Positions 31,326-50,149 of a DNA stretch of 64,000 bases are shown here, in pieces (within the stretch, counting starts at the first letter, position 1; each line of letters opens with the position of its first letter). The notes under the pieces are model-generated. The model had not been told where the DNA came from. It searched no databases and worked only from the letters and a program-made list of their open reading frames with translations. Location: contig CAVTNB010000003.1 in the NCBI GenBank assembly GCA_963736005.1, positions 32,001 to 96,000 of the forward strand, read 5' to 3'. Made by a program: the position numbers and the translations under genes. This DNA comes from an uncultured Pseudomonadota bacterium (GTDB taxonomy: Bacteria; Vulcanimicrobiota; Vulcanimicrobiia; Eremiobacterales; Eremiobacteraceae).

Positions 31326-31957
31326 GCCGGGCACCGCTTTGCAATCCATCGCAAGACGCCCTCGCGCACGACCTCCTGCTCGACAACATGCAGCCGTACG
31401 AGCGCTGTGGCTTCGTCTTCCTGCGGCGACAATTGCATGGGTTTGCGCGCCAAGACCGGTCCGCGGTCGACGCGCGGTGTAATTTCGATGAGGCTCGCGC
31501 CCGTGCAGGGTACTCGGGCCTCCAGGGCATCGCGCAATGCTCGGGCGCCGCGAAATGCCGGCGTCAGCGTGCCATCGGGAAAGCGCACCGTGTCGGCCGC
31601 TGGATCTTCTGGCAAATAAGCCGGATGCAGATTGAGGACGCCCTCGAACCCGGCGGTGAGAAATTCCGGCGCAAGCACGTGCATCCAGCCGAGCAGCAAG
31701 ACCAATCGCGATCCGCTCGTTCGGATCACTGATGCGAGACGAACGGCATACGCGGCTCGATCTTCTTTCTGGCGGTCGAAGATTGCGACTGATGTGGGAA
31801 TCCCAGCGCGAGTGGCGCGCTCGAGCGCAAGAGCATCGGCATTGTTTGAGACGACCAGCCGGATGTCGAGCGGCAACAATCCGGCACGCGCCGCATCGAT
31901 AACGGCCTGCAGATTTGTGCCGCTCCCGGAGGCCAAGATTGCCGTCGCTGTTGGCAT
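31322..31957 (-). CDS. purN: Phosphoribosylglycinamide formyltransferase
   Basis: ASGSGTNLQAVID, LLGWMHVL, NLHPAYLP, VDRGPV; directly downstream of purM. Confidence 0.88.
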   Translation of the reverse strand: MPTATAILASGSGTNLQAVIDAARAGLLPLDIRLVVSNNADALALERATRAGIPTSVAIFDRQKEDRAAYAVRLASVIRTSGSRLVLLLGWMHVLAPEFLTAGFEGVLNLHPAYLPEDPAADTVRFPDGTLTPAFRGARALRDALEARVPCTGASLIEITPRVDRGPVLARKPMQLSPQEDEATALVRLHVVEQEVVREGVLRWIAKRCPA

Positions 31958-31958
31958 G

Positions 31959-33023: not shown

Positions 33024-33155
33024 AATATATTGCGTCGTTTGTCGCTCGGGTTGGCCCTCCCTATGCACGTGCCAAGGTCGCTTTGTCGGCTTTGTATAAT
33101 TGATACCGTCACGTCGTTCATGGAGCATCGAACCTTTCGGTTCGGGAGATACCTA

Positions 33156-34707
33156 ATGAAGATTACCGTTCGCGCGGCACAGCCAAGCCGCGTAAAAGCA
33201 GATGCGCTGGCCGTTGCGCTCTTTGCCGATGGCAATCCGAGCGCCGGATTTAACGCCGCCGACAGCGCGACCGGAGGAGTGCTGGCTGACATGCGCAAGC
33301 GTGGCGAACTGCTCGGCCGCGACGGCGAGGTTCACGTTGTGCCCGCTGGCAAGCACCTTGGAGCAAAACGCGTGATTGTCGTAGGACTAGGGCCGCGCGC
33401 CACGTTTCACCCGGGTGCATTCGCGAAATACGCAGGACTTGCCGTCCGCGCGGCGGCGGCCCGCAAGCTCAGCAATCTTGCCATTACCATTCCGGAACCG
33501 ATTCCATTTAGCGCTGAGGCGGCAATTGAGAACGCAACCGAAGGCGCCATCATGGCAACATTCAACCCGGCGCCGTACCGCAGCAAACCTAATGGCAAGC
33601 CCGACGCAGTCAGCAATGTGACCCTTGTTGTCGAAACTGCGGCGGCCGCGAAAGCACTCGAGCGAGCTGTGCGCCCGGGCCTGGTTCTCGGCGAGGCCTC
33701 CAACATCGTCCGCGAGATGGTCAATCTTCCTTCCAACGACATGACTCCCACCCACTTGGCGCAGCGCGCGACTGCACTCGCCAAGAAACATGGGCTCAAG
33801 GTCAGCGTTCTGAATCGCGCCGAGATGAAACGACTCGGCATGGGATCGATGCTTTCCGTGGCGGCGGGCGCAGATCAACCGCCGAAGGTCATCGTGCTCG
33901 AGTATCGCGGAAACAAGAAATCAAAGACAGTTTTGGGTCTTGATCGGCAAGGGCATCACGTTCGATACGGGAGGCATTTCGCTCAAGCCCGCGCTCGACA
34001 TGGATGCGATGAAGGGAGACATGGCCGGTGGCGCAACCGTTATCGGCGCCATGGCGGCCATCGCGGAATTGCGTCCGAAGGTCAACGTCATCGGCATCGT
34101 AATGGCGACCGACAATATGCCGTCCAGCAAAGCAACCAAACCCGGCGACATCGTTCGCGCCATGAACGGAAAGTCGATCGAAATAACCAATACCGACGCC
34201 GAAGGGCGGCTCGTTCTGGCAGACGGCCTGTGCTACGCGCGCAAACTTGGGGCGACCCATCTCGTCGACGTCGCAACGCTCACCGGTGCTGCAGTGATCG
34301 CGCTTGGGAGCCAGTCGACCGCCGTGATGTCCAACGATCGTCAGTTTGTGGACCTCTTTCACGAGGCGACGGCACCCTACGGTGAGCGTTATTGGGAGCT
34401 GCCCCTGTTCCCGGAGTATGCGGATCTTATCAAGAGCGTCATCGCCGACATGAAGAATTCCGGCGGACGTCAAGCCGGCACGATCTACGGCGCGATGTTT
34501 CTGAAAGAGTTTGTCGGCTCAACGCCGTGGATTCATTTGGATATCGCGGGCACATCGTGGGCCGATAAGGATGCAGGCCACATCGTCAAGGGGCCAACGG
34601 CTGTCGCAGTTCGACCGCTGGTTCGCCTCGCCGAGCTGTTAGCTGAACGGGAAGTTCACGCAAAGGCAGACGAGGCCGCTCACCAGCGCCTCACCCCCCA
34701 AATGTAG
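33156..34707 (+). CDS. pepA: Leucyl aminopeptidase (M17), +1 frameshift near 33938
   Basis: N-terminal domain from ATG 33156 (GGGAG RBS). Catalytic GKGITFDTGGISLK, MKGDMAG and NTDAEGRL continue in the +1 frame. Confidence 0.92.
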
Positions 34708-34716
34708 CGTTTATTT

Positions 34717-34780
34717 GTAGGGGGCGATTGGTAAATCGCCCCGTCGCGGATGAGCGCGCGAATCAATTCGCGCGATTACA
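34717..34780. repeat. BIME-like inverted pair of REPs (B forward, C reverse) between convergent genes
   Basis: GTAGGGGGCGATTGGTAAATCGCCCC ... gcgcgcgaatcaattcgcgcgattaca. Confidence 0.82.
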
Positions 34781-35347
34781 TCACCGCGTCAGTGTCAGCG
34801 TATGCTGCAGTTGGAACTTTGCTTCCCCGTTTTCGGGAATCGTGACGTCCGTCTTGCTGTTGAGCCCGTAGAGAACGCCGGCGCTCAGGCCAAGCGCACC
34901 CCCAACGTTGGTCCCCAGCCATTTGCCGAGGATGTTGCCCGCGATCATGCCCCCCAACGCTTCAAGCGCAACGGTTCCGACATTGTTTTTCTTATTCTCT
35001 TCGACGGAGATCAGATTGGCGTAAATAATGCTCGACGCTCCATTACTCAGGGCGATCTTGTCGATCATAAAACTCAACTCTGGTTTCGTGCCCTGACCAG
35101 CCTTGCGCGCATTCACAACTCTCGCGTATAACTTGGCGCTAGCGAACGCGGAGTCGCCATTCGGATACGGCGAGCGCACCGTAAACGAAAAAGTCTGACC
35201 CTGGTATGCGTTCTTCGAACTAATCGAATTGTTTGACGTTGCATAGATATAGGCGCCGGCGGGCACGGTGATTGTTCTAGCAAGGGCCGTTACCGGGGCG
35301 AGCAGGCACACGATCAGGACCCATGGTGCGAGATGCTTGATGTGCAT
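34781..35347 (-). CDS. Secreted hypothetical protein with a glycine-zipper segment
   Basis: GAGGAG RBS, signal peptide, VPAG...ISSKNA..GQ.F beta-domain, GGMIAGNILGKWLG..VGGALG. Confidence 0.75.
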   Translation of the reverse strand: MHIKHLAPWVLIVCLLAPVTALARTITVPAGAYIYATSNNSISSKNAYQGQTFSFTVRSPYPNGDSAFASAKLYARVVNARKAGQGTKPELSFMIDKIALSNGASSIIYANLISVEENKKNNVGTVALEALGGMIAGNILGKWLGTNVGGALGLSAGVLYGLNSKTDVTIPENGEAKFQLQHTLTLTR

Positions 35348-35364
35348 GGTTCTCCTCTTACGAG

Positions 35365-35389
35365 GGGCGACTTGACAGTCGCCCGCTAC
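35365..35389 (-). repeat. REP family B'
   Basis: gggcgacttgacagtcgcccgctac. Confidence 0.8.
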
Positions 35390-35400
35390 GAATAAATTTG

Positions 35401-36861
35401 CTAGTGGGGGACGGCTTGCGGTTCGCGTACTTTCCCGGTCAGCTCTTCATGGATGCCCACAGGATAATGACCGGTGAAACAACCCATGCAAAAATCGCTC
35501 CTGGGACGACCCGTCGCTTCGACAAGAGCATCTTCGCTCAGGTAGCCGAGAGAGTCGGCATTGATCGCCTGTTGAATCTCGGGAACGGTGAAGTTGGCGG
35601 CAATCAACTGCTCGTACGTAGCGGTATCAACACCCAAGAAGCACGGGTGCCGCATGGGCGGACACGTCAAACGCACGTGCACCTCTGAAGCACCAGCGCG
35701 TCGGAGCATGGCAACCAACTGGCGTGTGGTCGTGCCGCGGACAATTGAATCATCGACGAGCACGATCCGCTTGCCCCGAAGATTGGCCACCAGCGGATTG
35801 AATTTGAGCTTGACCCCCTGCGCACGCATGCTCTGATCCGGCGCAATGAACGTCCGCCCAATGTAACGGTTCTTCATGAGGCCTTCGATATATGGCAATC
35901 CGGATTCGTCAGCATACCCGATGGCGGCTGCCGTGGCGCTGTCCGGAACGCCGATGACGACATCGGCGGCAACGGGGCACTCGCGCGCAATGGCGCGGCC
36001 CATCCGGTAGCGGGCGAGATAGAGCTCCTGACCAGCATACATCGTGTCGGGCCGAGAGAAATAGATATATTCAAAGATGCAATTGGCAGGTTTGTACTCT
36101 GTCTCAACCTTCCGCGAGCGCATACCGCGCTCGTCGACAATGATGATTTCCCCGGGCTCGACCTCGCGCACAAACTCCGCACCCACGGTGTTGAGCGCGC
36201 ATGATTCAGACGCGATCATCCAACCCTCGCCGTAACGGCCGACGCACAGTGGCCGGACGCCCCACGGATCGCGGAATCCGAACAACTGCTGTTCGGTTGC
36301 CAAGACAATGGAAAAGGCCCCGATGCACCGCCGCATGATGGCTGCGATTCGCTCTTCCATGTCGCCGTGGTCCATTGCAGCGATCAGCTTCGCGAGAACA
36401 TCCGAGTCAGAGTCTGCTGCCTCGGAGATTTCTGGCGCGAGCTGGCGGCGAAGCGCTTCAGTGTTGACGAGATTCCCGTTGTGGGCAAGCGCAAAGGCCC
36501 CGAGGGCGCTTGTCGCAAGCAAAGGCTGCGCGTTGTACACGACGGACGAGCCGGTCGTAGAATAGCGGGTATGGCCAACTGACAAGTACCCGGGCAGGCC
36601 CGCCAGAATTTCTTCGGTGAAAATCTGCGACAAGAGACCCATCTGTTTGTGGACGCGCAAGTCCCTGCCATCGGATACAGCAATGCCGGCGCTTTCCTGA
36701 CCGCGGTGCTGGAGAGCGTACAATGCGAAGTAGGTTGGGCGAGCGACATCCTCGCCCGGCGCAAAGATGCCACACACGCCGCACGCGTCGTGTACGGCGT
36801 CCTCACTGCCGCTTGGCTTTGGGATGTATGGTTGGTGCACGTCCCGCTCGAGCTCTCCCAT
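35401..36861 (-). CDS. purF: Amidophosphoribosyltransferase
   Basis: Propeptide then CGVCG, LQHRGQESAG, GHTRYST, HNGNL, VDDSIVRGTT, Fe-S Cys (CIFE, CFLG, CMGC). Confidence 0.97.
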   Translation of the reverse strand: MGELERDVHQPYIPKPSGSEDAVHDACGVCGIFAPGEDVARPTYFALYALQHRGQESAGIAVSDGRDLRVHKQMGLLSQIFTEEILAGLPGYLSVGHTRYSTTGSSVVYNAQPLLATSALGAFALAHNGNLVNTEALRRQLAPEISEAADSDSDVLAKLIAAMDHGDMEERIAAIMRRCIGAFSIVLATEQQLFGFRDPWGVRPLCVGRYGEGWMIASESCALNTVGAEFVREVEPGEIIIVDERGMRSRKVETEYKPANCIFEYIYFSRPDTMYAGQELYLARYRMGRAIARECPVAADVVIGVPDSATAAAIGYADESGLPYIEGLMKNRYIGRTFIAPDQSMRAQGVKLKFNPLVANLRGKRIVLVDDSIVRGTTTRQLVAMLRRAGASEVHVRLTCPPMRHPCFLGVDTATYEQLIAANFTVPEIQQAINADSLGYLSEDALVEATGRPRSDFCMGCFTGHYPVGIHEELTGKVREPQAVPH

Positions 36862-36892
36862 ACTTTTACCTTACTTGAAAGTCCTCAAACTG

Positions 36893-38185
36893 TCAACGAA
36901 CCGCCGCCGCCGCGTGTTCGCCGATGTCGCAACGGTAGCGAAGCGAGAGGCCGGGCGGCAAACCGGTGATGTACCGCTCGACGCTTGCGTAGGCTCGCTT
37001 GCGAGCGTCGGCCATCTCATCGCCGAGCGCGCAAACGGTGAGGACACGGCCTCCGGATGCGTTGACCGATCTTGCGATCAGTGTCGAACCACCCCAAAAA
37101 GCCACGACATCGTCCGTCGGAGGCTCAAAGGGCGGCAACCCGTCCACCGGGTCGGATCGCTGTGGATAGTTCTGTGAGCAAAGCACGACCCCCACGCAGG
37201 CGCGCGACGAGAATTTCGGGGGCTCGCAGTCCGTCAAGCTCCCATTCGCTGCCGCACGCAGCAGGTCGGAGAAATTACCCTCGAGGCGCGGGAGGACAAC
37301 CTCGGTTTCCGGGTCGCCAAACCGTGCGTTGAACTCAAGCAGCATGGGCCCGCGCTGCGTCATCATCAATCCGGCGTAGAGGCAACCGCGGTAGTCGATG
37401 CCTTCGCTTTTGAGGCCAAGGAGCGTGGGCTCCAAGACCCTTTGGCGCACGAGTTCGAGCTTGGCTGGGTCGAGTACGTCGTCAGCGGGCGAGTACGCCC
37501 CCATGCCGCCTGTATTGGGTCCACTGTCGCCATCGTTGGCGCGCTTGTAGTCGCACGCACCGGCAAGCACGTAATACTGCTGGCCGTCCAGTACCGCCAT
37601 AACGGAGACTTCGCGACCTTCCAGCAGCTCTTCGATGACGATCGTCGTGCCGCCACCGGGAAGCTTGCGTTCGCCGTACCACCGAGCCAACACAACGCGG
37701 GCATCGTCCGCATTCGCGCAGACAACGACTCCCTTTCCAGCAGCGAGACCGTCTGCTTTCAACACAACGCCCTTTGGAAAATGTGCTAGCGCTCGTTCCG
37801 CTTGCTTGAGGTCGTGTGCTTCGCGGTGCCGCGCCGTGGGTACGCCGTGACGATCCATGAACTGCTTCGCATATGCCTTGCTCGTTTCAAGACGCGCGCC
37901 GGCGCTGTTTGGGCCAAAAACCGAAATGCCAGCTCCACGGAGCGCATCTCCAACTCCCGCGGCGAGTGCCGCCTCGGGACCGATGACTGCAAGATCGATC
38001 TGCTCGCGCAGCGCGCGTTCGACCAGCTCGAGCCTCGAGGTGGCCGCAATTGGCCAATTCGTGCCGAGCAGGGCGGTGCCGGCATTCCCGGGCGCTGCGA
38101 AAATCTGGTCGATGCTCTTTGATGCGGCGAGCTTCCAGACGAGCGCATGCTCTCTCGCTCCAGAGCCAACAACGAGCGCCTTCAT
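36893..38185 (-). CDS. purD: Phosphoribosylamine--glycine ligase
   Basis: VGSGAREHAL, KADGLAAGKGV, GPNTGGMG, EFNARFGDPE. Confidence 0.97.
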   Translation of the reverse strand: MKALVVGSGAREHALVWKLAASKSIDQIFAAPGNAGTALLGTNWPIAATSRLELVERALREQIDLAVIGPEAALAAGVGDALRGAGISVFGPNSAGARLETSKAYAKQFMDRHGVPTARHREAHDLKQAERALAHFPKGVVLKADGLAAGKGVVVCANADDARVVLARWYGERKLPGGGTTIVIEELLEGREVSVMAVLDGQQYYVLAGACDYKRANDGDSGPNTGGMGAYSPADDVLDPAKLELVRQRVLEPTLLGLKSEGIDYRGCLYAGLMMTQRGPMLLEFNARFGDPETEVVLPRLEGNFSDLLRAAANGSLTDCEPPKFSSRACVGVVLCSQNYPQRSDPVDGLPPFEPPTDDVVAFWGGSTLIARSVNASGGRVLTVCALGDEMADARKRAYASVERYITGLPPGLSLRYRCDIGEHAAAAVR

Positions 38186-39732
38186 TCCCATTCGATGGTT
38201 GCGGGCGGCTTGCTCGTAATGTCGTACACCACTCGGTTGATTTCGGGAATCTCGTTGACGATGCGCGTCGAAATTTTCGCCAGCACCTCGGGGGCGAGGC
38301 GCGACCAGTCCGCGGTCATCCCGTCATCGCTTGCCACGGCGCGTATGGCGACCATGTTGCCGTAGGTCCGAAAATCACCCATGACTCCGACGCTGCGCAG
38401 CGGCGTGAGGACGGCGAAATATTGCCAAGGCTGCTCGGGTCCCCCGCGCTCGATTTCTTCGCGCGCGATGGCGTCGGCTCGTCGCAGCACGGATAGTCTC
38501 TGTTCGTCGACAGCCCCGAGAATGCGCACGGCCAGTCCAGGACCGGGAAACGGCTGTCTCTTCACGACGTGGTTGGGCAAACCAAGCTCGAGCCCCAGGC
38601 GGCGAACTTCATCCTTAAAGAGGAGCCGTAATGGTTCGATCAGCTTCAAGTTCATGATGTCCGGCAGTCCGCCCACGTTGTGATGCGTTTTTATCTTCGC
38701 CCCTCCTTTACTGAGCGGCGTCTTACTCTCGATCACATCTGGGTACAACGTGCCTTGCACTAAAAAGTCAACGCCTGGAATTTGCTTTGCCTGCTCTTCG
38801 AAGACCGCAATGAATTCGCGCCCGATGATGACCCGCTTCTCTTCTGGATCTTCAATGCCGGTGAGCTTATCGAGAAACCGTTGACTCGCATCGACGGCGA
38901 TCAAGTTGAGGTGCAACACGCCGCGGAATGCCGAAATAACTTGCTCGGCTTCTCCCTGTCGCAGGAGGCCGTGGTCCACGAAGATGCAGGTGAGCCGATC
39001 GCCGATCGCCCGTGCTACAAGCGTTGCCGCAACGGCGCTGTCGACCCCTCCGGAAAGGGCGCAGATCGCTCTTGCGGTGCCAAGCTGCGCGCGGATCTCT
39101 TCCACCGCAGCGTCGACGAAGGATGTCATCTCCCACTGCTGGTGCAAACCGGCGATCTTGCGCAGGAAATTTCGCAAGATTGTGCGCCCGTGTTCCGTGT
39201 GCTGCACTTCGGGGTGGAATTGCACGCCGTAGCGCTGCGTCTCGGGATCCCCGAACGCCGCCAGTGCACACGTCGGCGTGTGGGCAAGCTTGATGAAGCC
39301 CTTCGGCATTTCTGTGACCGTGTCGCCGTGGCTCATCCACACGAGAAACTGACTGGGCACGTCTAAGAACAGCAACGATTGGGCGGCATCCACCGTGAGC
39401 TCCGCGCGTCCATACTCCCGGATCGCTCCTGGTACGACTTGCCCCTTGCATGCGTAGGCGAGCTCCTGCATGCCGTAGCAAATGCCAAGAATGGGCTTGT
39501 CCGACTCCAAGATCTGCGGATGGATGTGCGGCGCACCCGACTCCAGGACGCTTTGGGGCCCACCCGTCAGGATGAAGGCGGACGGTTTGCTCCTCGCGAT
39601 TTCATTCCAGGGCGTGTCGTAAGAAAAGATTTCGCAGTAGACGCGCTCCTCGCGAACGCGACGGGCGATGAGTTGCGCGTATTGCGCCCCAAAATCGATG
39701 ATGGCAACCATCTCTGACGGTTGGTTTTTCAC
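38182..39732 (-). CDS. guaA: GMP synthase (glutamine-hydrolysing)
   Basis: DFGAQY, GICYGMQ, QFHPEV, LSGGVDS, IKTHHNVGG, KPPATIEWE. Confidence 0.98.
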   Translation of the reverse strand: MKNQPSEMVAIIDFGAQYAQLIARRVREERVYCEIFSYDTPWNEIARSKPSAFILTGGPQSVLESGAPHIHPQILESDKPILGICYGMQELAYACKGQVVPGAIREYGRAELTVDAAQSLLFLDVPSQFLVWMSHGDTVTEMPKGFIKLAHTPTCALAAFGDPETQRYGVQFHPEVQHTEHGRTILRNFLRKIAGLHQQWEMTSFVDAAVEEIRAQLGTARAICALSGGVDSAVAATLVARAIGDRLTCIFVDHGLLRQGEAEQVISAFRGVLHLNLIAVDASQRFLDKLTGIEDPEEKRVIIGREFIAVFEEQAKQIPGVDFLVQGTLYPDVIESKTPLSKGGAKIKTHHNVGGLPDIMNLKLIEPLRLLFKDEVRRLGLELGLPNHVVKRQPFPGPGLAVRILGAVDEQRLSVLRRADAIAREEIERGGPEQPWQYFAVLTPLRSVGVMGDFRTYGNMVAIRAVASDDGMTADWSRLAPEVLAKISTRIVNEIPEINRVVYDITSKPPATIEWE

Positions 39733-40868
39733 GTACAGACCTCCGCGAGCCGCCCACGATCGCGGGCCATGACGACCTCCTTTGCGATGCGTTCGCCAAC
39801 CGACATTTCCTTACCCCAACGATACGCCGAATACGGCGTGTACTTCGTTCCCGGCGATCCGGGAATGCGTAAGCTAACATCGTAGACGACGAACGACTTC
39901 GGCGGCCCGGGCGCGATGACGCACTGCAGCGCAAAAGGACCGATAATTCCTGGTGGGCTTTGGGAGCGCGCTGCCTTCACAAATCGCTCTCCCATGTCAA
40001 AGGCCTGTTCAAGCATCGATTCCGTGATCGTTGCCGCGATGTGGCCGGCCTCTTCCATCGATGCGGCAAAGGCCGCTCCCAGCGGCGCTTGATCGATCGC
40101 CAGCAGCGAGCGGATTCCGTCGATATTGGTTTGGCGCCGCGTGTCAGTTCCCAAGAGTTCGAGCTCCCCCAACACCGGCGACCAAAAGAAATTGAGGTTG
40201 ACCGTCGGACCCAAGACGTATTCCTCAAAGACGGCCTCGGCCAGTCCTTCTTGTGTGACGATGCCTGAAGCAAGATAGTGCGCTGCACGCTTTCGATACT
40301 GCTCGGGATTCGCGGCCAGAAAGAATGCGCGCTCATACTTTACCTTGGCATGCTGCGCCTTGATGAGGGTGAGACCGTCGATATCGTCTGGTCCTACGAG
40401 CCGCCGCGGATAGCGAATCCCTGCTGCGTCGAGCAGCTTGTACTGATTGTTCGCTTCGTCGCGCTCCTCGGCACGCAGCAAGCGACGCGATCCGAACATG
40501 GGGACCAGCATGGCCCGCTCGATCTCGTCATAGGAGTGCCGCTCTCGCGCGTACACTTCAAACGCACGATTCGGCACAAAAATCGCGTTGCGCTCGAGCA
40601 TGGCACGCTGACTCTCGTTGTTGATGACGTCCGCGAAGTGATCGACCATGATCACTTCATCGACGCATCCGGTGCCGTCCTCGCGGGTGCGATAAGCGAC
40701 TGTGTAGGTCTTCTCGCGGCGAGGCGCCGCAAACACGAGCGTGCGCAGGCCTTCGCGCTTGGCGCCCAAGCAGACGTCCAGCGCTGAATGACTCCCGATG
40801 CACGTCAGGGTGAGGCGGCGAGTATCGTACGAAGCGAGGGCGGCGCTGGGAGACGTCGCCTCGCCCAT
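39729..40868 (-). CDS. PurP-like ATP-grasp protein (DUF1246/DUF1297), divergent paralog
   Basis: IGSHSALDV..GAK.EG, VPNRAF, ERAFF, DTRRQTNIDG, EAGH, PPGIIGPFALQ, MSVGERIAKEV. Confidence 0.85.
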   Translation of the reverse strand: MGEATSPSAALASYDTRRLTLTCIGSHSALDVCLGAKREGLRTLVFAAPRREKTYTVAYRTREDGTGCVDEVIMVDHFADVINNESQRAMLERNAIFVPNRAFEVYARERHSYDEIERAMLVPMFGSRRLLRAEERDEANNQYKLLDAAGIRYPRRLVGPDDIDGLTLIKAQHAKVKYERAFFLAANPEQYRKRAAHYLASGIVTQEGLAEAVFEEYVLGPTVNLNFFWSPVLGELELLGTDTRRQTNIDGIRSLLAIDQAPLGAAFAASMEEAGHIAATITESMLEQAFDMGERFVKAARSQSPPGIIGPFALQCVIAPGPPKSFVVYDVSLRIPGSPGTKYTPYSAYRWGKEMSVGERIAKEVVMARDRGRLAEVCT

Positions 40869-41983
40869 CAGTTTGCGGGAACCCCGGGGCCAGGTACGGC
40901 GACCGACTCTCCGTTGTGCGCCGAGGATACGTCAAAGGACAATCGGCTCGCCCGGTCGAGGACGAGCTCGAGACTGTTCGAGAGCAGCGCGTTCTTGATC
41001 TCGCGTGCGATGCGCCGCCCGGTTGACATCGGTTCGTCATAGTTGAGATACGAATAGGGAGAGCCGTCAATGAAAAGGTTGGTGCCCGCAACGATGCGCG
41101 CGGAGATCTCCATAAGGAAGAATTCGGACTCCGACGTCACGATGGTCTCCAGGCAAAACGCGCCAAACAAACCGCGATCTGGACAGATCTCACGGCTCAC
41201 GCGCACGACGGCCTCGCCCATGTCGAATGCTTCCGCGAGGAGCGACTCCCGCAAGCTAATGGGTTGGTTGCCGATGACGACATAGGATGGCGAGATATCC
41301 CAGCCTTCCTGATCCGCGAGCGGAATGCGCCCCAGTGAATCTACGTTGCTTTCGTAACGGCGATCCATCGACATGATTTCGAGTTTGCCGGTCAGCGGCG
41401 AATAAAAGTAATGAATGTAGACGGGAACGCCGAGCACGTATTCTTGCATGATGTAGCGCTGCTCGACCAGGTGGGAGGCGCGCGCCGTAAAGTCCTCGGG
41501 GTTTTTGACAAAAAGATATCCCTTGCCGCCGTGCGCCCCATACAGTTTGACGATAACTGGGCGGTCGATCTCGCTCGCTTTCGTAAACTGCCGCGGCATC
41601 TTGAGGCCCGCCTTGGTGAGCCATTGGCGTTGGCGCATGCGATCGGCTTCCCAATCAAGCACCGCCTTGTTGCCGAAGTAGGGTGTCGTCATCCGCTTGT
41701 GCTCTTCCATTGAGAGATACGCCACGAAAGAGCCATGGGGGACGAGAATGACTTTGCGGCGATTGAGTTCTTGCTCGAGCTTGGGAAAATCGCCGTACCG
41801 GGGAATCACGATAACCTCGTCAACGAACGCGAAGCTTGAATACAACCGTTCGTTGAGTGGCGTCACCACGGCAAGCGTATGAAAGCCTTCGTCCTTGGCG
41901 CCCTTGAGGATTTGCAGCGCCGAGTGGCTGCCCAAGGTGGCGACAGTGAAGAGCGACGGCGGGTGCGTCGACTTGCGCTTCAT
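40868..41983 (-). CDS. purP: Formate--AICAR ligase (FAICAR synthetase), archaeal type
   Basis: ATLGSHSALQILKGAKDEGF, VPHGSFVAY, HYFYSPL, DRRYESN, LRESLL, EISARIVAGTN, MSTGRRIAREIK. ATG at 41983. Confidence 0.9.
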   Translation of the reverse strand: MKRKSTHPPSLFTVATLGSHSALQILKGAKDEGFHTLAVVTPLNERLYSSFAFVDEVIVIPRYGDFPKLEQELNRRKVILVPHGSFVAYLSMEEHKRMTTPYFGNKAVLDWEADRMRQRQWLTKAGLKMPRQFTKASEIDRPVIVKLYGAHGGKGYLFVKNPEDFTARASHLVEQRYIMQEYVLGVPVYIHYFYSPLTGKLEIMSMDRRYESNVDSLGRIPLADQEGWDISPSYVVIGNQPISLRESLLAEAFDMGEAVVRVSREICPDRGLFGAFCLETIVTSESEFFLMEISARIVAGTNLFIDGSPYSYLNYDEPMSTGRRIAREIKNALLSNSLELVLDRASRLSFDVSSAHNGESVAVPGPGVPAN

Positions 41984-42507
41984 TTTCCGCTCTTCGCCGC
42001 GGACGCCGCCGGTTCCCCGACTTGCAGGCTGACGGGGCGGCGGCGAATCTGGAAGCGCTGGGAGACTGGGTTGCACAGCAGCGCTGCACATGCCCATTCG
42101 AGCCGGTCGCGAGCGGCGGAGCCCTTTGCCTCGTAGAGTCTCCAGCCGATGGCTCGCTCTAGCCCGAGCAGCGCAGTCATCCCAAAGGTCGTCACCAAGA
42201 GGTCCTGGAGCGGCCGGTTGTTCTCGTCCCTGTCGCGCACGAGTGCTTCGAACTGCGCGGGCTCGACGTCAGGCGCGTTCTCTGCGGCGTAACTCAGGCG
42301 ATGTTTGTTGGGGTTAAAGATGACTTCGGCATGCGACAGCTCGCTCGCGACCTCATCCGCGCGGGTACCATCCAAAACCTTAAGCAAAATGTGCTCCGAG
42401 CGCTCGACGTTCGTGAGTTCGGTGTAACCCAAGTGGTGAAGAGAGGTCAGCACGGTGAAGGCCGTGTTGTCGGGGATGATAGAGTCGATGGCAACGTCTA
42501 TTCTCAT
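41980..42507 (-). CDS. purS: Tandem two-domain PurS-like protein
   Basis: Two modules of about 80 aa ending in IFNPNKH and CAALLCNPVSQRF (canonical PurS ends C..LLANPV.E.Y). The first module has D....TV...L..LGY..L..V.R. It lies in the purL/purQ cluster, which has no other purS. Confidence 0.6.
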   Translation of the reverse strand: MRIDVAIDSIIPDNTAFTVLTSLHHLGYTELTNVERSEHILLKVLDGTRADEVASELSHAEVIFNPNKHRLSYAAENAPDVEPAQFEALVRDRDENNRPLQDLLVTTFGMTALLGLERAIGWRLYEAKGSAARDRLEWACAALLCNPVSQRFQIRRRPVSLQVGEPAASAAKSGK

Positions 42508-44021: not shown

Positions 44022-44233
44022 TCGCGCCCCGCGTCGTGCGCCAGAATATACACCGCCCAAATGATCAACGCCGTGGCCGCAATCCAGACGAACTGATACC
44101 AATAAAAAAACGGTACGCCGGCTATGGATGGCTCCATCGAATTGTACGAGGGGGCCCACAGCATGACTATATAGGGAACGACGAGCAACCAATACCAGCG
44201 TCGCCTAGCGGCGCCCGATTGTCGCTGCTGCAT
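44018..44233 (-). CDS. DUF3311 small membrane partner of the symporter
   Basis: WLLVVP..MLW.P.YN..EP.IAGVPFFYWYQ..W motif; overlaps the symporter start. Confidence 0.88.
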   Translation of the reverse strand: MQQRQSGAARRRWYWLLVVPYIVMLWAPSYNSMEPSIAGVPFFYWYQFVWIAATALIIWAVYILAHDAGRE

Positions 44234-44282
44234 ATCCGGCCGGTTAGTCGCGGCGCAAAAGAATCCTGGCCAGATGCGCGGC

Positions 44283-44306
44283 GGCGATTTTCCAATCGCC
44301 CCTACA
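44283..44306 (-). repeat. REP family B overlapping the purQ stop codon
   Basis: ggcgattttccaatcgcccctaca. Confidence 0.8.
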
Positions 44307-45036
44307 TGTTCAAGGCGCGGGCCATGCTTTGAAAGATCAGGTCTGACGTTGAGGTCTTCATCGGGTCGAGCCCACGCAGCGTTGGATCGTCAAAAGCGAG
44401 ATTAAAGTTCCAGGCGACACGTTCGGGATGTGGCATGATCGCAAGGACGTTGCCCGCGGCATTGCAGATGCCAGCTGCTCCGTGCATGGCGCTGTTGGGC
44501 GCCGAACCAACGTAACGAAAAGTGATGCGTTGATCTCGTTCGAGCGCGTCGAAAAGCGCAGGCTCGCCCGTGAAACGACCCTCACCATGTGCCATCGCCA
44601 TCTTCATCCTGATGCCTTTGGGAAGGGCCGCCGTGAGCGCGCAGCGCTCTGGCACCGCGGCAAGCTCGACGTCAAGAATGCGACATTGGAAATGGCCGGA
44701 GGGGAGATTTCGAGCGATCGCGATCGGCCCGAGAAGGCCTGCTTCGGCAAGCACCTGTGCTCCGTTGCAAAGACCCAAGACTACCTTACCGCGGGTTGCT
44801 TCTTCCGCGACGACCGTGACGCTCGGCGATTTCGCTGCAATCGCCCCGGCGCGCACTCGATCTTCGAAAGCGAATCCGCCGGGCAGCACATACCCCGCAA
44901 AGTCCCGCAAATTGCCGGGCGGCTCACTCCAAAGAACGGCGCGAGCGTCGAGTCCCGCAGCCGTGCAAGCATCGACCGTCTCCTCTTCTGAATTGGTGCC
45001 GGGAAAAACCAGCACGGCGATTCGTGGGGCCTTCAC
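44302..45036 (-). CDS. purQ: FGAM synthase subunit PurQ
   Basis: FPGTN, LPGGFAFED, LGLCNGAQ, AHGEG, MPHPER. Confidence 0.95.
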   Translation of the reverse strand: MKAPRIAVLVFPGTNSEEETVDACTAAGLDARAVLWSEPPGNLRDFAGYVLPGGFAFEDRVRAGAIAAKSPSVTVVAEEATRGKVVLGLCNGAQVLAEAGLLGPIAIARNLPSGHFQCRILDVELAAVPERCALTAALPKGIRMKMAMAHGEGRFTGEPALFDALERDQRITFRYVGSAPNSAMHGAAGICNAAGNVLAIMPHPERVAWNFNLAFDDPTLRGLDPMKTSTSDLIFQSMARALNM

Positions 45037-47390
45037 GCGAACAAATCCCGGAGCGGACGCATCCAGCTTTCGGAAAGATCGGCGAGACCGACGCTACACA
45101 GACCCTCGATCGTCAGACTCGTGCCACCCGTGTGTCCGAGCCGGATCGGCGCAGCACCCGAGCCCCGAGCGAGATCCTCGAATCGATCGACCTCCTTGGG
45201 GTCTATCGTAACGACGAAGCCGCCCGATTCGCCGAAGAGCGCCGACGATGCTGGAATGTTCGGGGCCCACTGCTCCAGAGGAAGCAGCGAGGCGCCGATG
45301 CTTCCATTCCCTTCGCCTCCCAAGCACATCTCTGCGACGCACGCGAGCACGCCGCCATCTGAAATGTCGTGCGCTGCGGTGATGCTGCCAATGTGAATGC
45401 CCTTGAGAACGGTGGCGATGTCTGCATTGACTTCGTCGTAGTCGATTGCAGGCAGCGGCCCAGCGTCGCGCAGGTGCAGCACATCGGCTAAGACCGAACC
45501 GCCCAGCCCCGTGTCGCGTGCGCCGAGCAGATACAGATGCTGGTTCGGGAACATGATGTTCATCGTCACGATTTTGCCGACATTCTCGATGCGACCAATG
45601 CAGGCCACGATTGCCGATGGCACGATCGCAGTGCCTGACGCAGAATAGTTGTAAAGGCTGACGTTGCCGCTGATGAAAGGTAATCCATCCGCTGACGCTA
45701 CGGTGATCGCACGTGCCGCTTCTGCCAACCCCAAGACGCCGTCTGCAAGCTCGCGATAGGCAACCGGATCTTCCGGATTGCCGTAGTTGAGGCAATCGGT
45801 CAGGCCGATGGGCAAAGCGCCCACGGCAGCGACGTTGCGAGCCGATTCGACGACCGCGTGCGCTGCCGCCATTTTGGCGGAAATTGCTCCAAAGCGTGCG
45901 TTGCCGTCGACCGAAATTGCAATGGCCAGGGGAGAGCCGCGACGAACGACCAGCACGCCCGCATCCGCATACCCAGGGGGAAGAGCCGTCGCTCCTCGCA
46001 CGACCGAATCGTAGTGCTCGACGAGCGGCCGCCGGCTGCATACGTCTTGGTGAGACAAAACGCGAAGCAGGGTACCGGCAACATCTGAGAGCGGCGGCGG
46101 TGCAACCTGTGCGATCTCCGGCGGCGAAGGCGCAAGCGTCCAGCTAGCCCTGACCGGCTGCGTGAGAACGTCGATTGGCAAGGCACAGATTGAACGGCCG
46201 GCTGCGGTCAGAACGTACCAGGGCTCGCGGGTTACCGTTCCGATGACCGCCGCCCTCGCGTTGGCTGAAACTTCCGGAAGCGTATATCGCTCGTTGTACA
46301 GAGCGAGCAACTCCGTTGTGAACGAAGGCGGTACCGCCCACAACATGCGCTCCTGCGTCTCGGCCATTGCGACCACGAAGGGTGAAAGGCCGGCAAGCGC
46401 TACCGGAATTTTCTCGATGTCAATGCGCGCACCAAAACCGCCGGCGCTACACATCTCCGACGAACTTCCCATGATGCCGCCGGCGCCCAAGTCTTTAAAC
46501 CCCGCCTTGATCCCGCGTTTTGCAATGAGTTCAAACGCGGCATAACTTGCTCGCATGATCACATTCTTGAGAAACGGATCGGGAACTTGGACAGCACTTT
46601 TGTTCGCTTCTGCTTCTTGCGCATCCAGTATCAGCGAAGCGAAAGCGGCGCCCCCAAAGCCGGAGCCGTCGGTCGCCTTCCCAACCAGCACGAGGTCGTA
46701 GCCCTCGCCACAGGAGGGGACTCGGCTGTGAATGATCCGGTCGCGTTCGACGAAGCCAAGCGCGACAACGTTGACCAAGCAATTGTGACTAAAGGACGGG
46801 TGAAAGTACACGTCGCCTGCCAAGTTGGGAACCCCGACGGCATTCCCATAGGCCGCGATGCCATCCACCACACCGGTTGCAACGTAGGCTTGGTGTGAGC
46901 CAGCAACGGGTGGTCCAAAGCGTAATGGGTCAGCGCTTGCGACAACTTTCGCCCCCATGCAGAGCACGTCGCGCAAAACGCCTCCAATCCCGGTTGCTGC
47001 GCCTTCAAAGGGCACGACTTGCGACGGATGGTTATGACTTTCGTGTGCGACGACCACGCCGTATTCCGTGCCGTCAACAATTCCCACGCGCAAAATGCCC
47101 GCGTCTTCCCCAACCGGCACGAGCACATCAACGCCTTGGGTCGGTAATTGGGCCAACAGCGCGCGACTGCTTTTGTACGAGCAATGCTCGCTCCACTGAA
47201 TGGCAAAGGCGTGAGCCTCGGTGCGCGTTGGATTGCGCCCCAATCGCTCTCGAATCGCGCGCAATTCCTGGGGGGTGAGCGCAAGCGCCTCGCGGTCTGC
47301 GAGGCGCTTCAGTTCATCGTCGCTGCTCTCGTCAAGCGGCAGCGGTTGTGCCGCAAGCTCTATCAGGTCTGCCGTGGCAGCAAAGCCCAT
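45033..47390 (-). CDS. purL: FGAM synthase subunit PurL (small type)
   Basis: WSEHCSYKSS, ESHNHPS, GAATGIGG, DLGAGG, ETQERM, DCLNYGNP, SGNVSLYN, HDISDGG. Confidence 0.96.
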   Translation of the reverse strand: MGFAATADLIELAAQPLPLDESSDDELKRLADREALALTPQELRAIRERLGRNPTRTEAHAFAIQWSEHCSYKSSRALLAQLPTQGVDVLVPVGEDAGILRVGIVDGTEYGVVVAHESHNHPSQVVPFEGAATGIGGVLRDVLCMGAKVVASADPLRFGPPVAGSHQAYVATGVVDGIAAYGNAVGVPNLAGDVYFHPSFSHNCLVNVVALGFVERDRIIHSRVPSCGEGYDLVLVGKATDGSGFGGAAFASLILDAQEAEANKSAVQVPDPFLKNVIMRASYAAFELIAKRGIKAGFKDLGAGGIMGSSSEMCSAGGFGARIDIEKIPVALAGLSPFVVAMAETQERMLWAVPPSFTTELLALYNERYTLPEVSANARAAVIGTVTREPWYVLTAAGRSICALPIDVLTQPVRASWTLAPSPPEIAQVAPPPLSDVAGTLLRVLSHQDVCSRRPLVEHYDSVVRGATALPPGYADAGVLVVRRGSPLAIAISVDGNARFGAISAKMAAAHAVVESARNVAAVGALPIGLTDCLNYGNPEDPVAYRELADGVLGLAEAARAITVASADGLPFISGNVSLYNYSASGTAIVPSAIVACIGRIENVGKIVTMNIMFPNQHLYLLGARDTGLGGSVLADVLHLRDAGPLPAIDYDEVNADIATVLKGIHIGSITAAHDISDGGVLACVAEMCLGGEGNGSIGASLLPLEQWAPNIPASSALFGESGGFVVTIDPKEVDRFEDLARGSGAAPIRLGHTGGTSLTIEGLCSVGLADLSESWMRPLRDLFA

Positions 47391-48664
47391 CAGGTCCCCG
47401 CTTTACCACTCCCTGCGGGGGCGTTGAGCTGCGCGTCGGACTCGGTGACGTGCATGCGGTTGCGATACTGCGCAACGACGACTCGACCGTAGAGCACCGA
47501 ATCATCGGAGGCGAGAATTTTCGCAGCGGCAAGTGCAGCGTTTTCGGGCTCGAGGACGACCATGCTTGCGACCCCGCCCGGAAGAGCGAGACTGGAGACC
47601 ACTTCCATGCCGCCCCAGGTCGAACCAAGCACGGGGCAGGCGATGACCGGATTCGCCGTCGCGGCATCGACAAAGGCTGAGAGGGCGTTGCTTCTCCCGG
47701 CGATCGTTATGTAAACCGCCCGGCCGAGCATGTTGTCGATTTGCTGAACTTTTTGCAGCGCGTACAGAGGGGTCTTGTGGGCCGAGGCGACGTGACGGCG
47801 CGCTGGGACTCCCAAATTCTCGAGCGCTTTTGCAATCTTGTCTGCGTGCGCCGCATCCGAAGTCGAACCCATGATGATGCCAACGAAGCCACCGCCCCGC
47901 TTGGAGAATTGTCCGACACGCTCTGCAACTTCTTCGTACTTGGATTTTACGCTGTCGAGATCAGACGCACTCGGGACTGCGATGTTGCGATAGATTTGCT
48001 TGTCGAGCATCAGCGCTTGCTCGCCGGCGGGCCAAATTCGCCACGAGTCGTTGTCGATGACGTCCGCGAGGATAATCTCTGTGCCACCGTCTGCGGTCTT
48101 TGCGCGCCCGAATTCGACTTTGAGGTCGACGAGGAGCACGTTCTGTTGGCGCCAAGCATGTGCGAGGATGTCGAAGATCAGCCGCGCGTAGTCGGACATG
48201 ATGGCGACCTCGGCTTGGGTTGCGATCTTCTCTTCGACGATTTGCTCTGCCGTATACTGAGGATCGTGACGCGAGTCGTCTTTGAAGAAATACTCGACCA
48301 GGCGAGGCGCAAACACCGTGCCCGATTTGACGCCCGGGTTGCGCTTGAGATAGGAGCCTGCTGCGATGCCTCGCACGACGACTTCGATCGGAATCATCTC
48401 GCAGCGGCGCACGATCATCTCGTTTGCGTCTTCATCTTCACCGCCGCTGATGAAGTGCGTCGGCAACCCAGCCGCGTTGAGCAAGCGATAGACGCGGCTC
48501 GCCGTGAGCGCTGCGAGCCGGCCTTTGCCCGCAATGGTATGGCGTTTTGCCCCGTCGCCGGCCGTAATGTTGTCCTGCTGGACCACCACAAGTGCGTCCA
48601 TCTGATCGGGATGTTGGTAGAGTACCTTGGTCTTGCCGCGACCGACCTCAGCGCCTTTGTTCAC
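47390..48664 (-). CDS. purC: Bifunctional SAICAR synthetase / class II AIR carboxylase (PAICS-like PurC-PurE fusion)
   Basis: PurC: GKTK, ITAGDG, CEMIPIE, GSYLKRNPGV, FFKDD, DLKVEFG, ADVIDNDSWRIWP, DKQ. PurE: IMGSTSD, SAHK, AGRSNAL, PVIACP. Confidence 0.92.
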   Translation of the reverse strand: MNKGAEVGRGKTKVLYQHPDQMDALVVVQQDNITAGDGAKRHTIAGKGRLAALTASRVYRLLNAAGLPTHFISGGEDEDANEMIVRRCEMIPIEVVVRGIAAGSYLKRNPGVKSGTVFAPRLVEYFFKDDSRHDPQYTAEQIVEEKIATQAEVAIMSDYARLIFDILAHAWRQQNVLLVDLKVEFGRAKTADGGTEIILADVIDNDSWRIWPAGEQALMLDKQIYRNIAVPSASDLDSVKSKYEEVAERVGQFSKRGGGFVGIIMGSTSDAAHADKIAKALENLGVPARRHVASAHKTPLYALQKVQQIDNMLGRAVYITIAGRSNALSAFVDAATANPVIACPVLGSTWGGMEVVSSLALPGGVASMVVLEPENAALAAAKILASDDSVLYGRVVVAQYRNRMHVTESDAQLNAPAGSGKAGT

Positions 48665-48698
48665 GGATCCTCCCTCTTGCGTGTGTCGTTGTTCGAAT

Positions 48699-48724
48699 GT
48701 AGTCGCGCGAATTTATTCGCGCGC
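48699..48724 (+). repeat. REP family C overlapping the purB 3' end
   Basis: GTAGTCGCGCGAATTTATTCGCGCGC; the purB TAA stop lies in the palindrome loop. Confidence 0.85.
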
Positions 48725-50149
48725 CCGAAGTTCAATATCCAAAACTTTTTGCGCCGCCTTTGCCTCGGCAAGGGTTCGCAGTGATGCCGCCAGTTTTCGA
48801 GCTCGCTGCGCCGCAAGCCCCGTGTGTTTTTCAACTTTCATCGCCTGCTGGAGTTCGCCCGGCTTCACGTATGTGGCGATGTAATCGTCCTGCTCAAGCA
48901 GGCCGGCAAGCGGATTGCGCTCGTCTTTCTCGACGGCCTCCCACGCGCGCATCGAGAGTTCTCGCAGCCGTTCGTGCAGCTCTTGCCGGTTCGCGCCGCG
49001 CTTCGCGGCCATCATCAAAACGGCTTCGGTACACGCAAAAGGCCCAAACCGTGCCAGGTTTCTGGCAATACCGGCCTTATCCACTCGCAGGCCGCTGATT
49101 ACCTTGTGCACGAGCGCCGTTATTTCATCTGCCGCCAAGAATGACTCGGGAATGATGGTGCGACGATTGGCGGAGTCGTCAAGCGTCCGTTCGAGGAGAT
49201 TGTCTGCCGCATTCTGCCAGGCAATCTGTGCATTCGCGGCGGGAATACGCGCCAGCGAGTTGATGCGCTCGCACAACATTGGGTTTCGCTTGAACGGCAT
49301 GGCCGACGAGCCGACTTGCTTGCGACCGAAGGGCTCGCCGAGCTCGCCGAATGGACTCGAGGCAAGCACCCGAAGATCGAAGGCGAATTTGGAACACGAT
49401 GCTGCAAAACCGGCGATGGCGCTCAGAACCATATAGTCGAGTTTGCGCGGATAGGTCTGGCCGCTGACGGCCAGGGCCGCGAGGTCGAACGCGGCAAGCA
49501 CGTCTCGCTCGAGATCGTCGGGCGAGGACTTTGCTTCCTTTAGGAGTGCGCTGTAAGAGGCGGACGTCCCCACAGCTCCCCGGAGGCCTTTGCTCGGCAG
49601 CCATGCCGCGATACGGCTTAGCTCCTGGTAGTCGATGAGCATGTCTTGCGCCCAGAGCGCAAGACGCATCCCGAGCGTCGTCGGCTCGGCCGCTTGGAGA
49701 TGGGTGTATCCCATACATGGCAGGTCTGCATACTCGTCAATCTTATCCGCGAAGATTTTGAGCGCATCGGCGATGCCGCTGACGAGCATGGAGAGCGCGA
49801 CTTTGATGCGGGCCGTTTCCACGTTATCTTCCACATCCATGGAGGTCGCGCCCAGGTGAAGCTTGCCACCGCCTATCTTAGCCTGCGATGCAAAGACCCG
49901 AAGTTCTGCCATGAGATCGTGGCCGATTTCGGCCTCGATGGTGTGCGCAGCCTTAATATCCACCGCGTCGACGTAGCGGCGCAGGTCCGCAACCTCTTCT
50001 TCGCTGACGAGACCCGCTTTGGATTGTGCCTGCGCGAGCGCCAGCCAAAGGCGCCGCCACATGCGGCGTTTGGTTTCTTCGGAAAACAGCGCCCGCATGG
50101 CTGGGCGGCCGTAGCGCCATGAAAATGGAGATTGGTAAGACTCGGTCAC
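48713..50149 (-). CDS. purB: Adenylosuccinate lyase
   Basis: YQSPFSWRY, LHLGATS, GYTHLQ, GSSAMPFKRNP, LERTLDDSANRR. Confidence 0.96.
   Translation of the reverse strand: MTESYQSPFSWRYGRPAMRALFSEETKRRMWRRLWLALAQAQSKAGLVSEEEVADLRRYVDAVDIKAAHTIEAEIGHDLMAELRVFASQAKIGGGKLHLGATSMDVEDNVETARIKVALSMLVSGIADALKIFADKIDEYADLPCMGYTHLQAAEPTTLGMRLALWAQDMLIDYQELSRIAAWLPSKGLRGAVGTSASYSALLKEAKSSPDDLERDVLAAFDLAALAVSGQTYPRKLDYMVLSAIAGFAASCSKFAFDLRVLASSPFGELGEPFGRKQVGSSAMPFKRNPMLCERINSLARIPAANAQIAWQNAADNLLERTLDDSANRRTIIPESFLAADEITALVHKVISGLRVDKAGIARNLARFGPFACTEAVLMMAAKRGANRQELHERLRELSMRAWEAVEKDERNPLAGLLEQDDYIATYVKPGELQQAMKVEKHTGLAAQRARKLAASLRTLAEAKAAQKVLDIELRARE

Follow-up and report, generated by a model that had tools for sequence, protein, structure and literature searches.

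The 64,000-nucleotide window analyzed here (GenBank assembly GCA_963736005.1, contig CAVTNB010000003.1, positions 32,001 to 96,000, from an uncultured bacterium of the Eremiobacteraceae) carries a gene, purCE, that fuses a SAICAR synthetase (PurC) to a class II AIR carboxylase (PurE), the architecture known from animal PAICS. Judging from its sequence and that of its relatives, this gene very probably specifies a bifunctional enzyme that catalyses steps 6 and 7 of de novo purine synthesis without PurK. In these steps aminoimidazole ribonucleotide (AIR) is carboxylated to carboxyaminoimidazole ribonucleotide (CAIR), and CAIR is condensed with aspartate to succinylaminoimidazolecarboxamide ribonucleotide (SAICAR).

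The gene (47390..48664; this and all other window coordinates below refer to features on the minus strand) is a single open reading frame (ORF) of 424 amino acids with a GTG start and a TGA stop. SAICAR synthetase comes first and AIR carboxylase second, as a preliminary description of this DNA had held: the ORF list gives one frame, in which Pfam places a SAICAR_synt domain (PF01259, E 4.2e-61) at residues 8-248 (47921..48643) and an AIRC domain (PF00731, E 2.8e-32) at residues 261-399 (47468..47884), after which a C-terminal helix runs to about residue 414. An N-terminal SAICAR_synt and a C-terminal AIRC domain in one polypeptide are the PAICS-type architecture. The N-terminus agrees with the consensus of the homologue alignment, MNKGxEVARGKTK, and a Shine-Dalgarno-like GAGGGAGG, read directly from the sequence (48669..48676), lies 5-12 nt upstream of the GTG. 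All ten motifs named earlier can be found in the translation (ITAG, CEMIPIE, GSYLKRNPGVK, FFKDD(SRH)DPQ, LADVIDNDSWRIWPAG, VAERV, MGSTSD, SAHK, AGRSN and PVIACP), the sole slip being that FFKDD and DPQ are separated by three residues and not by two.

Frameshifted-looking genes lie nearby in the window, namely a split holA and a frame holding both ribH and mtnA, which raises the question of whether an assembly or indel error joined separate purC and purE genes. For purCE we consider the probability of this negligible. An uninterrupted fused frame is present in 9/9 sampled genomes of the window's family, at 72-81% identity over residues 1-423, in 71/71 genomes of a sister family (f2, below) and at 581 loci of a species-genome collection. 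It is also carried by 83 full-length database proteins of at least 71% identity from several independent sources, and the purC/purE junction aligns to solved PAICS without a gap. Since the same fused frame recurs in family genomes and database proteins, the fusion is not an assembly artefact.

Comparison with solved structures by sequence search returned animal PAICS as the best two matches, Bombyx mori 4ja0 (E 8.5e-89; residues 9-410 on 18-417) and human 2h31 (E 1.2e-88; 2-397 on 8-404). The alignment is collinear at approximately 40% identity overall, and the bacterial and animal proteins (human 2H31/6YB8, Bombyx mori 4JA0) have in common the domain order, the linker, the length (424 versus 425 aa) and a class II PurE. 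They differ in that identity to the vertebrate form is only 34.6% in the PurE domain, that animal PurC has a 6-residue insertion missing from the window protein, which in turn has its own 3-4-residue insertion (GGEDEDANEM region), and that the window fusion is encoded in a bacterial operon. The next solved matches were free-standing PurCs, with Geobacillus kaustophilus 2ywv at E 4.4e-38. These short bacterial and archaeal PurCs (2ywv, E 4e-38; Methanocaldococcus jannaschii 2yzl/2z02, E 1e-31) have the same fold and catalytic residues (template modelling (TM) score 0.92 by target) but are free-standing proteins of about 240 aa that lack a PurE domain. Nearest in the ESM Atlas were clusters of eukaryotic PAICS (score 0.97), which we take as a lead only, as this search provides neither an alignment nor a taxonomy for P0123.

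Active-site residues are largely conserved. Mapped through the structure-match alignment, 38/42 residues of the two human PAICS active-site models described in PMC9376930 are identical in the window protein. The changes (human to window N43 to D37, M190 to L181, V328 to I321 and G334 to A327) are all conservative or common to insect and bacterial forms. In the PurC site the identical residues include Glu94, Asp134, Lys182, Glu184, the DSWR block, Lys222, Arg226 and GKTK (residues 10-13, 48626..48637), the ATP-site loop that corresponds to human G16-K19 by the alignment mapping and the same residue list. In the PurE site, where 16/18 residues of the AIR carboxylase model are identical, they include MGSTSD, SAHK and AGRSN. 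Here GSTSD (residues 266-270, 47855..47869; human G273-D277) is the AIR phosphate/ribose-binding loop, SAHK (294-297, 47774..47785; human S301-K304) provides two catalytic residues, Ser294 and His296, together with the class II Lys297, and AGRSN (322-326, 47687..47701; human A329-N333) is the class II '70s loop'.

These last two motifs place the domain in class II. We take SAHK with AGRSN to be the signature of class II and SAHR with AGGAAHLPG that of class I, and the window protein has the former at residues 294-297 and 322-326, which upholds the class originally assigned to it. In a PurE-domain tree, a branch with 100/100 support parts 58 class II rows, the window protein among them, from 6 class I rows. 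Class I PurE with PurK (Escherichia coli b0523/b0522) covers the same pathway step, AIR to CAIR, with the same PurE fold, but has SAHR and AGGAAHLPG and uses N5-carboxyaminoimidazole ribonucleotide (N5-CAIR) from the ATP-dependent PurK. Fungal and plant Ade2 carry out this step with a PurK-PurE fusion, and the window fusion is without such an ATP-grasp PurK part. Among solved free-standing PurEs the best match is to Treponema denticola class II PurE (3rg8, E 3.5e-29), which, with its further entries 3rgg and 5c5d, shares SAHK and AGRSN at 38-39% identity (TM 0.94 by target). Free-standing PurE chains from other organisms follow at E 4e-20 to 1e-6, with E. coli class I PurE at 5e-11 to 8e-11.

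The preliminary description had also read the motifs as those of vertebrate PAICS rather than of bacterial enzymes, and this part is not supported. DVIDNDSWR.WP also occurs in free-standing prokaryotic PurCs, and the 120 nearest free-standing PurEs (proteins shorter than 233 aa) carry SAHK in 112 cases and AGRSN in 113. These single-domain proteins of about 155-170 aa, labelled Chloroflexota, Anaerolineae, Marinimicrobia or Aminicenantes where labels exist, have the class II motifs in common with the window domain, to which the nearest non-fragment matches are 47-55% identical, and differ from it in that PurC is encoded separately. By identity the window PurE domain is closer to the free-standing bacterial class II protein P0311 (54.5%) than to vertebrate PAICS P0129 (34.6%). 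The PurC domain is 44.3% identical to P0129, 41.7% to the free-standing P0150 and 39.1% to P0172.

A class II enzyme should need no PurK. PMC9376930, PMC3261824 and PMC10484210 describe AIR carboxylation of the class II type as using CO2 without ATP. The best PurK (TIGR01161) match in the genome that contains the window (2.84 Mb in 6 contigs, 84% complete) scores only 30 bits, where the cut-off is 318. Among relatives in the same family, 0/9 genomes have a PurK match at E<=1e-20. Both results agree with the earlier suggestion that PurK is not needed. A search of the window's own genome for a second PurC found SAICAR_synt matches in the fusion gene only, and a search for a second PurE found one other gene with an AIRC domain, a 221-aa LarB (273 bits, cut-off 175) beside LarE. 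This larB-larE pair, for the nickel-pincer cofactor, is a separate locus at G000:C1:1086589-1089975 (L002).

Of the indirect evidence for a working AIR carboxylase in the fused domain, the strongest comes from its relatives. We sampled 151 genomes of the phylum, among them the window's family (f1) and two sister families (f2 and f3), and applied the same PurK threshold throughout. In f1 the full-length fusion is present in 9/9 genomes (matching residues 1-423 at 72-81% identity), PurK in 0/9, the genomes being 95-98% complete, and no separate PurE was found with the window protein as query. One of these genomes (G128) is unpublished, and without it the counts are 8/8 and 0/8. In f2 (genomes within G011-G150; example loci of f2 and f3 are L178-L183 and L174) the fusion is likewise present in 71/71 genomes, with a match to the window protein that mostly covers residues 1-341 only, and 68/71 genomes have PurK. 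They also have a separate PurE frame of roughly 170-200 aa, 32-41% identical, which lies within about 60 nt of PurK in all genomes whose coordinates were compared (e.g. G130, G093, G081). The single f3 genome (G055) has a fusion of 56% identity over residues 1-415 together with PurK and a separate PurE.

The motifs follow the same division. Reading them in 16 fetched genomes, we found GS..D, SAHK, AGRSN and the P.I.CP...SSL block all kept in f1 (3 genomes), SAQK in place of SAHK and CGRND in f3, and all four blocks gone in f2 (6 genomes), with about 25 residues deleted. Database proteins repeat the pattern. The full-length family-type proteins have GS..D and SAHK in 83/83 cases and AGRSN in 81/83, SAHK is kept in 1/6 proteins at 55-57% identity, and none of the four motifs remains in 25/25 proteins at 48-52% identity (proteins of the decayed type are P0087-P0122). 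Mean pairwise identity within f1 (22 sequences) is 78% for PurC and 74.5% for PurE; within f2 (33 sequences) it is 77% for PurC and 53% for the relic PurE domain. Because an intact class II domain goes with the lack of PurK, and a decayed one with purE and purK, the fused domain appears to be a working AIR carboxylase in the window's family, and in f2 it may be a pseudo-enzyme retained as an assembly scaffold.

If the f2 domain has that role, the PurE domain of the window protein might be a non-catalytic scaffold too, with CAIR supplied through spontaneous N5-CAIR formation or by an unrecognized carboxylase. The sister families do demonstrate that a domain can be retained without its motifs, and the window's own genome is incomplete. 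Against this stand the four intact motif blocks and the near-complete identity to human PAICS in the AIR carboxylase site, the conservation of the domain within f1 as compared with that of the f2 relic, and the failure to find any other PurE or PurK in the window's genome or PurK in its relatives. We regard a scaffold role here as highly improbable.

Several points weigh against the assignment as a bifunctional enzyme. With a genome that is 84% complete, the lack of PurK in the organism itself rests on its family relatives. Neither domain reaches the cut-off of its NCBIfam equivalog, with 135.2 bits against 189.9 for TIGR00081 (purC) and 120.4 against 149.6 for TIGR01162 (purE); such scores are what would be expected of a divergent subfamily, though they are not a formal pass. 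The genome G008 has a nearly intact fusion (SVHK) as well as PurK, and the two routes are hence not strictly exclusive. On the side of the assignment, an AlphaFold2 model from a 37-row alignment (predicted local distance difference test score 92.2, predicted TM score 0.90) has a chain of octameric human PAICS, 6yb8_A, as its best Foldseek match (TM 0.89/0.90, root-mean-square deviation 2.4 A over 420 columns), but its domain arrangement may derive from PAICS structures in the training set, and the TM score is not independent evidence for the geometry between the domains.

The residues suggest how the bifunctional enzyme would work. The class II PurE domain would carboxylate AIR directly with CO2, without ATP, to give CAIR. 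By homology, His296 would act as the general base, Ser294 would hydrogen-bond the imidazole, and Ser267, Ser269, Lys297 and Arg324 would hold the phosphate. The PurC domain would then condense CAIR and aspartate with ATP to SAICAR, in a site predicted to consist of the GKTK loop, the magnesium ligands Glu94 and Asp134, and Thr34, Lys182, Lys222 and Arg226 for aspartate binding. Both sites would thereby stay together in a single particle, which, as in PAICS, is probably an octamer with PurE at its core. There the ATP-driven second step could pull the reversible, ATP-free carboxylation forward as CAIR is handed to the PurC site. Channelling of CAIR between the two sites is reported for human PAICS in PMC8988938, and we infer catalysis, oligomeric state and channelling in the window protein from what is known of the family. 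The fusion would be the only PurC and the only PurE of the cell, presumably co-transcribed and translationally coupled with purB, purL and purQ.

The architecture is widespread in bacteria, occurring in Eremiobacterota, in the candidate phyla radiation (CPR) and in others, and has already been named automatically in public databases. In the protein database, 86 clusters are 71-100% identical to the window protein, and 83 of these are full length; the NCBI labels of the clusters are Eremiobacteraeota, Vulcanimicrobiota or Eremiobacteraceae. A Joint Genome Institute label, 'phosphoribosylaminoimidazole carboxylase / ...succinocarboxamide synthase', shows that the architecture has been auto-annotated. 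Of the 581 confirmed fusion loci in the species-genome collection, the best 80 are almost all titled as Eremiobacterota-type, and the fusion gene is kept across the whole class.

To consider the origin of the fusion we refer to the lineage of the window protein as type A and to P0123 and its relatives as type B. P0123 lies in a compact purH-purCE-purM...purL-guaB-guaA operon on a metagenome contig (L089, 5948-16653). In the genome collection, G110 encodes a seemingly identical protein and G004, G006, G015, G021 and G008 similar ones; these genomes are filed in the window's phylum but in other families, and two database relatives of type B are labelled Armatimonadetes/Armatimonadota by NCBI. 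The CPR fusions are P0125 (Woykebacteria/Microgenomates), P0162 (Minisyncoccia), P0181 (Uhrbacteria) and P0218 (Sungbacteria). Type B and the CPR/Patescibacteria fusions have the architecture and the class II motifs in common with the window protein, to which they are 43-45% identical, and the CPR fusions differ further by a 25-35-residue insertion in PurC. In the alignment, domain order and linker length are identical across all groups with PurC before PurE.

Other combinations appeared among the matches. They include a reverse-order fusion of a class-I-like PurE (SAHR) to PurC, and PurC-PurF, PurD-PurC and orotidine-monophosphate-decarboxylase-PurC fusions. Also among them are PurCs with a tail of about 140 aa, in which no AIRC match was found; these cluster with type B and animal PurC. 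Taken together, the matches of all these kinds are P0147, P0151, P0165, P0168, P0240, P0185 and P0200; P0138; P0158; P0174; and P0142/P0145/P0155/P0156/P0161. In the ESM Atlas, 266 giant virus (Nucleocytoviricota) proteins with a length of about 642 aa form a cluster annotated SAICAR_synt, Formyl_trans_N and AIRC, a viral multi-enzyme purine fusion.

A carefully built PurE-domain tree (64 rows, 162 columns, rooted on the 6 class I rows) included 22 of the 120 free-standing class II proteins and 3 SAHR variants, with the decayed f2 and f3 domains left out. In this tree all other PAICS-type fusions form a clade (100/95) whose sister is type A (100/100); the branch that joins the two has support of 89/77, and a 93-row version gives 91 for the same grouping. 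Inside the clade of other fusions come the CPR-Microgenomates, then a grade of type B, then the eukaryotes (100/99), with a long-branched CPR-Parcubacteria group attached to the eukaryotes. One further fusion, P0124, groups with the free-standing PurE P0377 (96/94).

The PurC domain gives another picture. In a quick tree of 78 rows, for which 28 long free-standing PurCs were picked by hand, type A (100) falls outside a 60-row clade, supported at 98 by the Shimodaira-Hasegawa-like approximate likelihood ratio test, that unites the long free-standing PurCs, the CPR and reverse-order fusions, and type B with eukaryotes (87). FastTree on a 139-row set agrees, again with type A outside that clade (99). 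We also applied the approximately unbiased (AU) test, with groups named after the trees had been seen and CPR rows excluded from the first group. On PurC data, a constraint that keeps type A, type B, animals, mRNA-like sequences and P0132 in one group costs 5.1 log-likelihood units (p-AU 0.41); on PurE data, holding the PAICS clade with 11 free-standing PurEs to the exclusion of type A costs 1.0 (p-AU 0.44). Neither constraint is rejected.

A careful full-length tree of fusions only (39 rows, 430 columns) groups type B with eukaryotes (95/95), the latter as a clade of their own (100/97), and leaves type A and the CPR-Microgenomates outside. Type B is paraphyletic around eukaryotes and monophyletic in only 4% of 200 bootstrap trees. 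Eukaryotes are represented by animals, a single EukProt transcript and short metagenome contigs that resemble mRNA, one of which clusters with a springtail; sampling of eukaryotes other than animals is very thin. On these sequences, the nearest sampled relatives of eukaryotic PAICS appear to be the type B fusions, with type A a more distant holder of the architecture. The link to the origin of the eukaryotic fusion that the preliminary description had drawn is thus borne out in part: the PAICS-like architecture and length and the best solved full-length matches stand, but type B is nearer to eukaryotic PAICS, and the PurE domain of the window protein is closer to free-standing class II enzymes. 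Our reading is that the PAICS architecture arose in bacteria, or at any rate has long been present in them.

The direction of transfer bears on this. A PAICS gene might instead have entered bacteria from a eukaryote in a cDNA-like form, and it is true that both the solved structures and the ESM Atlas have eukaryotic PAICS as their best full-length match; for the class II PurE of Archaeoglobus, a transfer from eukaryote to archaeon was proposed by Brown et al. 2011 (PMC3261824). With the class I root, however, all fusions with PurC before PurE nest among free-standing bacterial class II PurEs, and eukaryotes lie inside the bacterial fusions and not the reverse. In the full-length tree type B is paraphyletic around them. 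The window protein, moreover, is only about 40% identical to animal PAICS, its gene is part of an apparently translationally coupled bacterial pur operon in a window of uniform guanine-plus-cytosine content (0.55-0.61), and it is conserved over the whole class. We consider acquisition from a eukaryote very unlikely.

Whether type A shares its fusion event with PAICS is, from the trees and alignments, about an even question, slightly favouring one event. A more speculative scenario, to which we give clearly less than even odds, is that the fusion of PurC to class II PurE was an old bacterial invention, that eukaryotic PAICS came from a type B-like fused gene by horizontal transfer, and that type A is an early-branching holder of the same event. 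The sister families would then have re-acquired purE and purK and kept a PurE domain without motifs, probably as a scaffold for PurC assembly. If this holds, the class to which the window belongs offers a natural series from enzyme to pseudo-enzyme domain.

An independent origin has to be weighed alongside this scenario. The function would be the same, but adjacent bacterial purC and class II purE genes would have fused in this lineage separately, and the architecture would be convergent on homologous domains. In its favour are the PurC-domain trees (98 in the quick tree, 99 with FastTree), with type A outside a clade that contains free-standing long PurCs, the CPR fusions, and type B with eukaryotes, and it fits the greater closeness of the window PurE domain to P0311 than to vertebrate P0129 and the small cost of joining the PAICS clade to free-standing PurEs minus type A. 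These two domains have also fused more than once, as seen in P0124 (with P0377), in the reverse-order SAHR PurE-PurC type and in P0269. The PurE tree speaks the other way, joining type A to all other PAICS-type fusions (89/77, or 91 with 93 rows), as do the PurC data, which do not reject type A, type B, eukaryotes and P0132 as one group, and the domain order and linker length, alike in all fusion groups. We see independent fusion as a plausible explanation whose chances fall somewhat short of even.

Full-text literature searches, with supplements outside their scope, returned no description of a bacterial fusion of PurC to class II PurE or of purine synthesis in Eremiobacterota. PMC10912719 states that bacteria have PurE and PurC in place of PAICS, and Brown et al. 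call fused PurCE 'common in eukaryotes' (PMC3261824). The reviews considered (PMC10912719, PMC10484210 and PMC3261824) still assign direct AIR carboxylation without ATP, and the PAICS fusion, to animals or eukaryotes, and PurK with class I PurE to bacteria. We have likewise not seen a description of the series within this class, i.e. an intact fusion without PurK (f1), a domain lacking the histidine (f3), and a gutted but kept domain alongside purE and purK (f2).

The locus shows cleanly how bacteria of a free-living lineage run the 'animal' version of this step, with a built-in comparison in close relatives that are back to purE and purK and whose fused domain has decayed. Such bacterial proteins make it testable whether the fusion channels CAIR, whether the PurE core is mainly a scaffold, and what level of CO2 the PurK-free route requires. 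They also bear on drug-target arguments in which every bacterium is assumed to have PurK and class I PurE. Where the origin of eukaryotic PAICS is concerned, the type B fusions are more relevant than the window gene.

The surroundings of purCE are those of a purine operon. Upstream by 48 nt lies purB (adenylosuccinate lyase, 48713..50149; Lyase_1 and ADSL_C), and downstream follow purL (formylglycinamidine ribonucleotide synthase II, 45033..47390; AIRS, AIRS_C and FGAR-AT_linker) and purQ (its glutaminase subunit, 44302..45036; GATase_5), which overlaps the end of purL by 4 nt. The stop codon of purCE and the start codon of purL overlap by one base in a TGATG that can be read directly from the sequence (47388..47392), which suggests translational coupling. 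The rest of the cluster (31322..42097), identified by Pfam and NCBIfam, consists of purN, purM (about 32061-33011), purF, purD, guaA and two PurP-like genes, and purH is encoded elsewhere in the genome, outside the window. Together with purL, purQ and purB these genes make up the rest of a de novo pathway, in which a step from AIR to CAIR is required. A gene of the sodium:solute symporter family (42504-44192), placed between purQ and the PurP-like genes, could encode a nucleobase or precursor transporter.

The PurP-like genes are adjacent (39729-40868 and 40868-42097), have DUF1246 and DUF1297 domains, and resemble the archaeal formate-dependent synthetase of formamidoimidazolecarboxamide ribonucleotide, with NCBIfam scores of 247 and 384 bits that are below the cut-offs of 556-580. 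Within the phylum sample, two copies are present in 9/9 f1, 71/71 f2 and 1/1 f3 genomes but in only 1/69 genomes of other families, and among 14 control genomes the family occurs only in 3 archaea. A search for PurO found none, and PurH is present in the genome alongside the PurP-like genes.

A perfect 9-bp inverted repeat, CGCGCGAAT..ATTCGCGCG with a 2-nt spacer (48704-48723), extends across the stop codon of purB at 40-60 nt before the start of purCE. It has no T-run after it, and could form a hairpin or be an operator-like palindrome. A search of the whole window with Rfam at gathering thresholds gave 0 matches, and hence no known riboswitch in the pur cluster, and a scan of 44000-51500 for promoters and terminators gave 1 promoter-like and 6 terminator-like sites, no excess over shuffled sequences. 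None of the 7 sequencing runs listed as containing the DNA is an RNA run; six of them contain 5-36% of the sampled words.

The frameshifted-looking genes mentioned above lie upstream of purB. The gene holA (DNA polymerase III delta, 50273-51305) appears to be split into overlapping ORFs in different frames, an N-terminal part at 50802-51305 and a C-terminal part at 50273-50875, owing to a frameshift or to an assembly indel error. Further on, lumazine synthase (RibH, residues 1-149) and an IF-2B/MtnA-like domain (residues 208-458) share the ORF at 51522-52901, and the C-terminus of the MtnA-like part seems to run on in another frame (51302-51670); this ORF could be a real fusion or the product of more indel errors.

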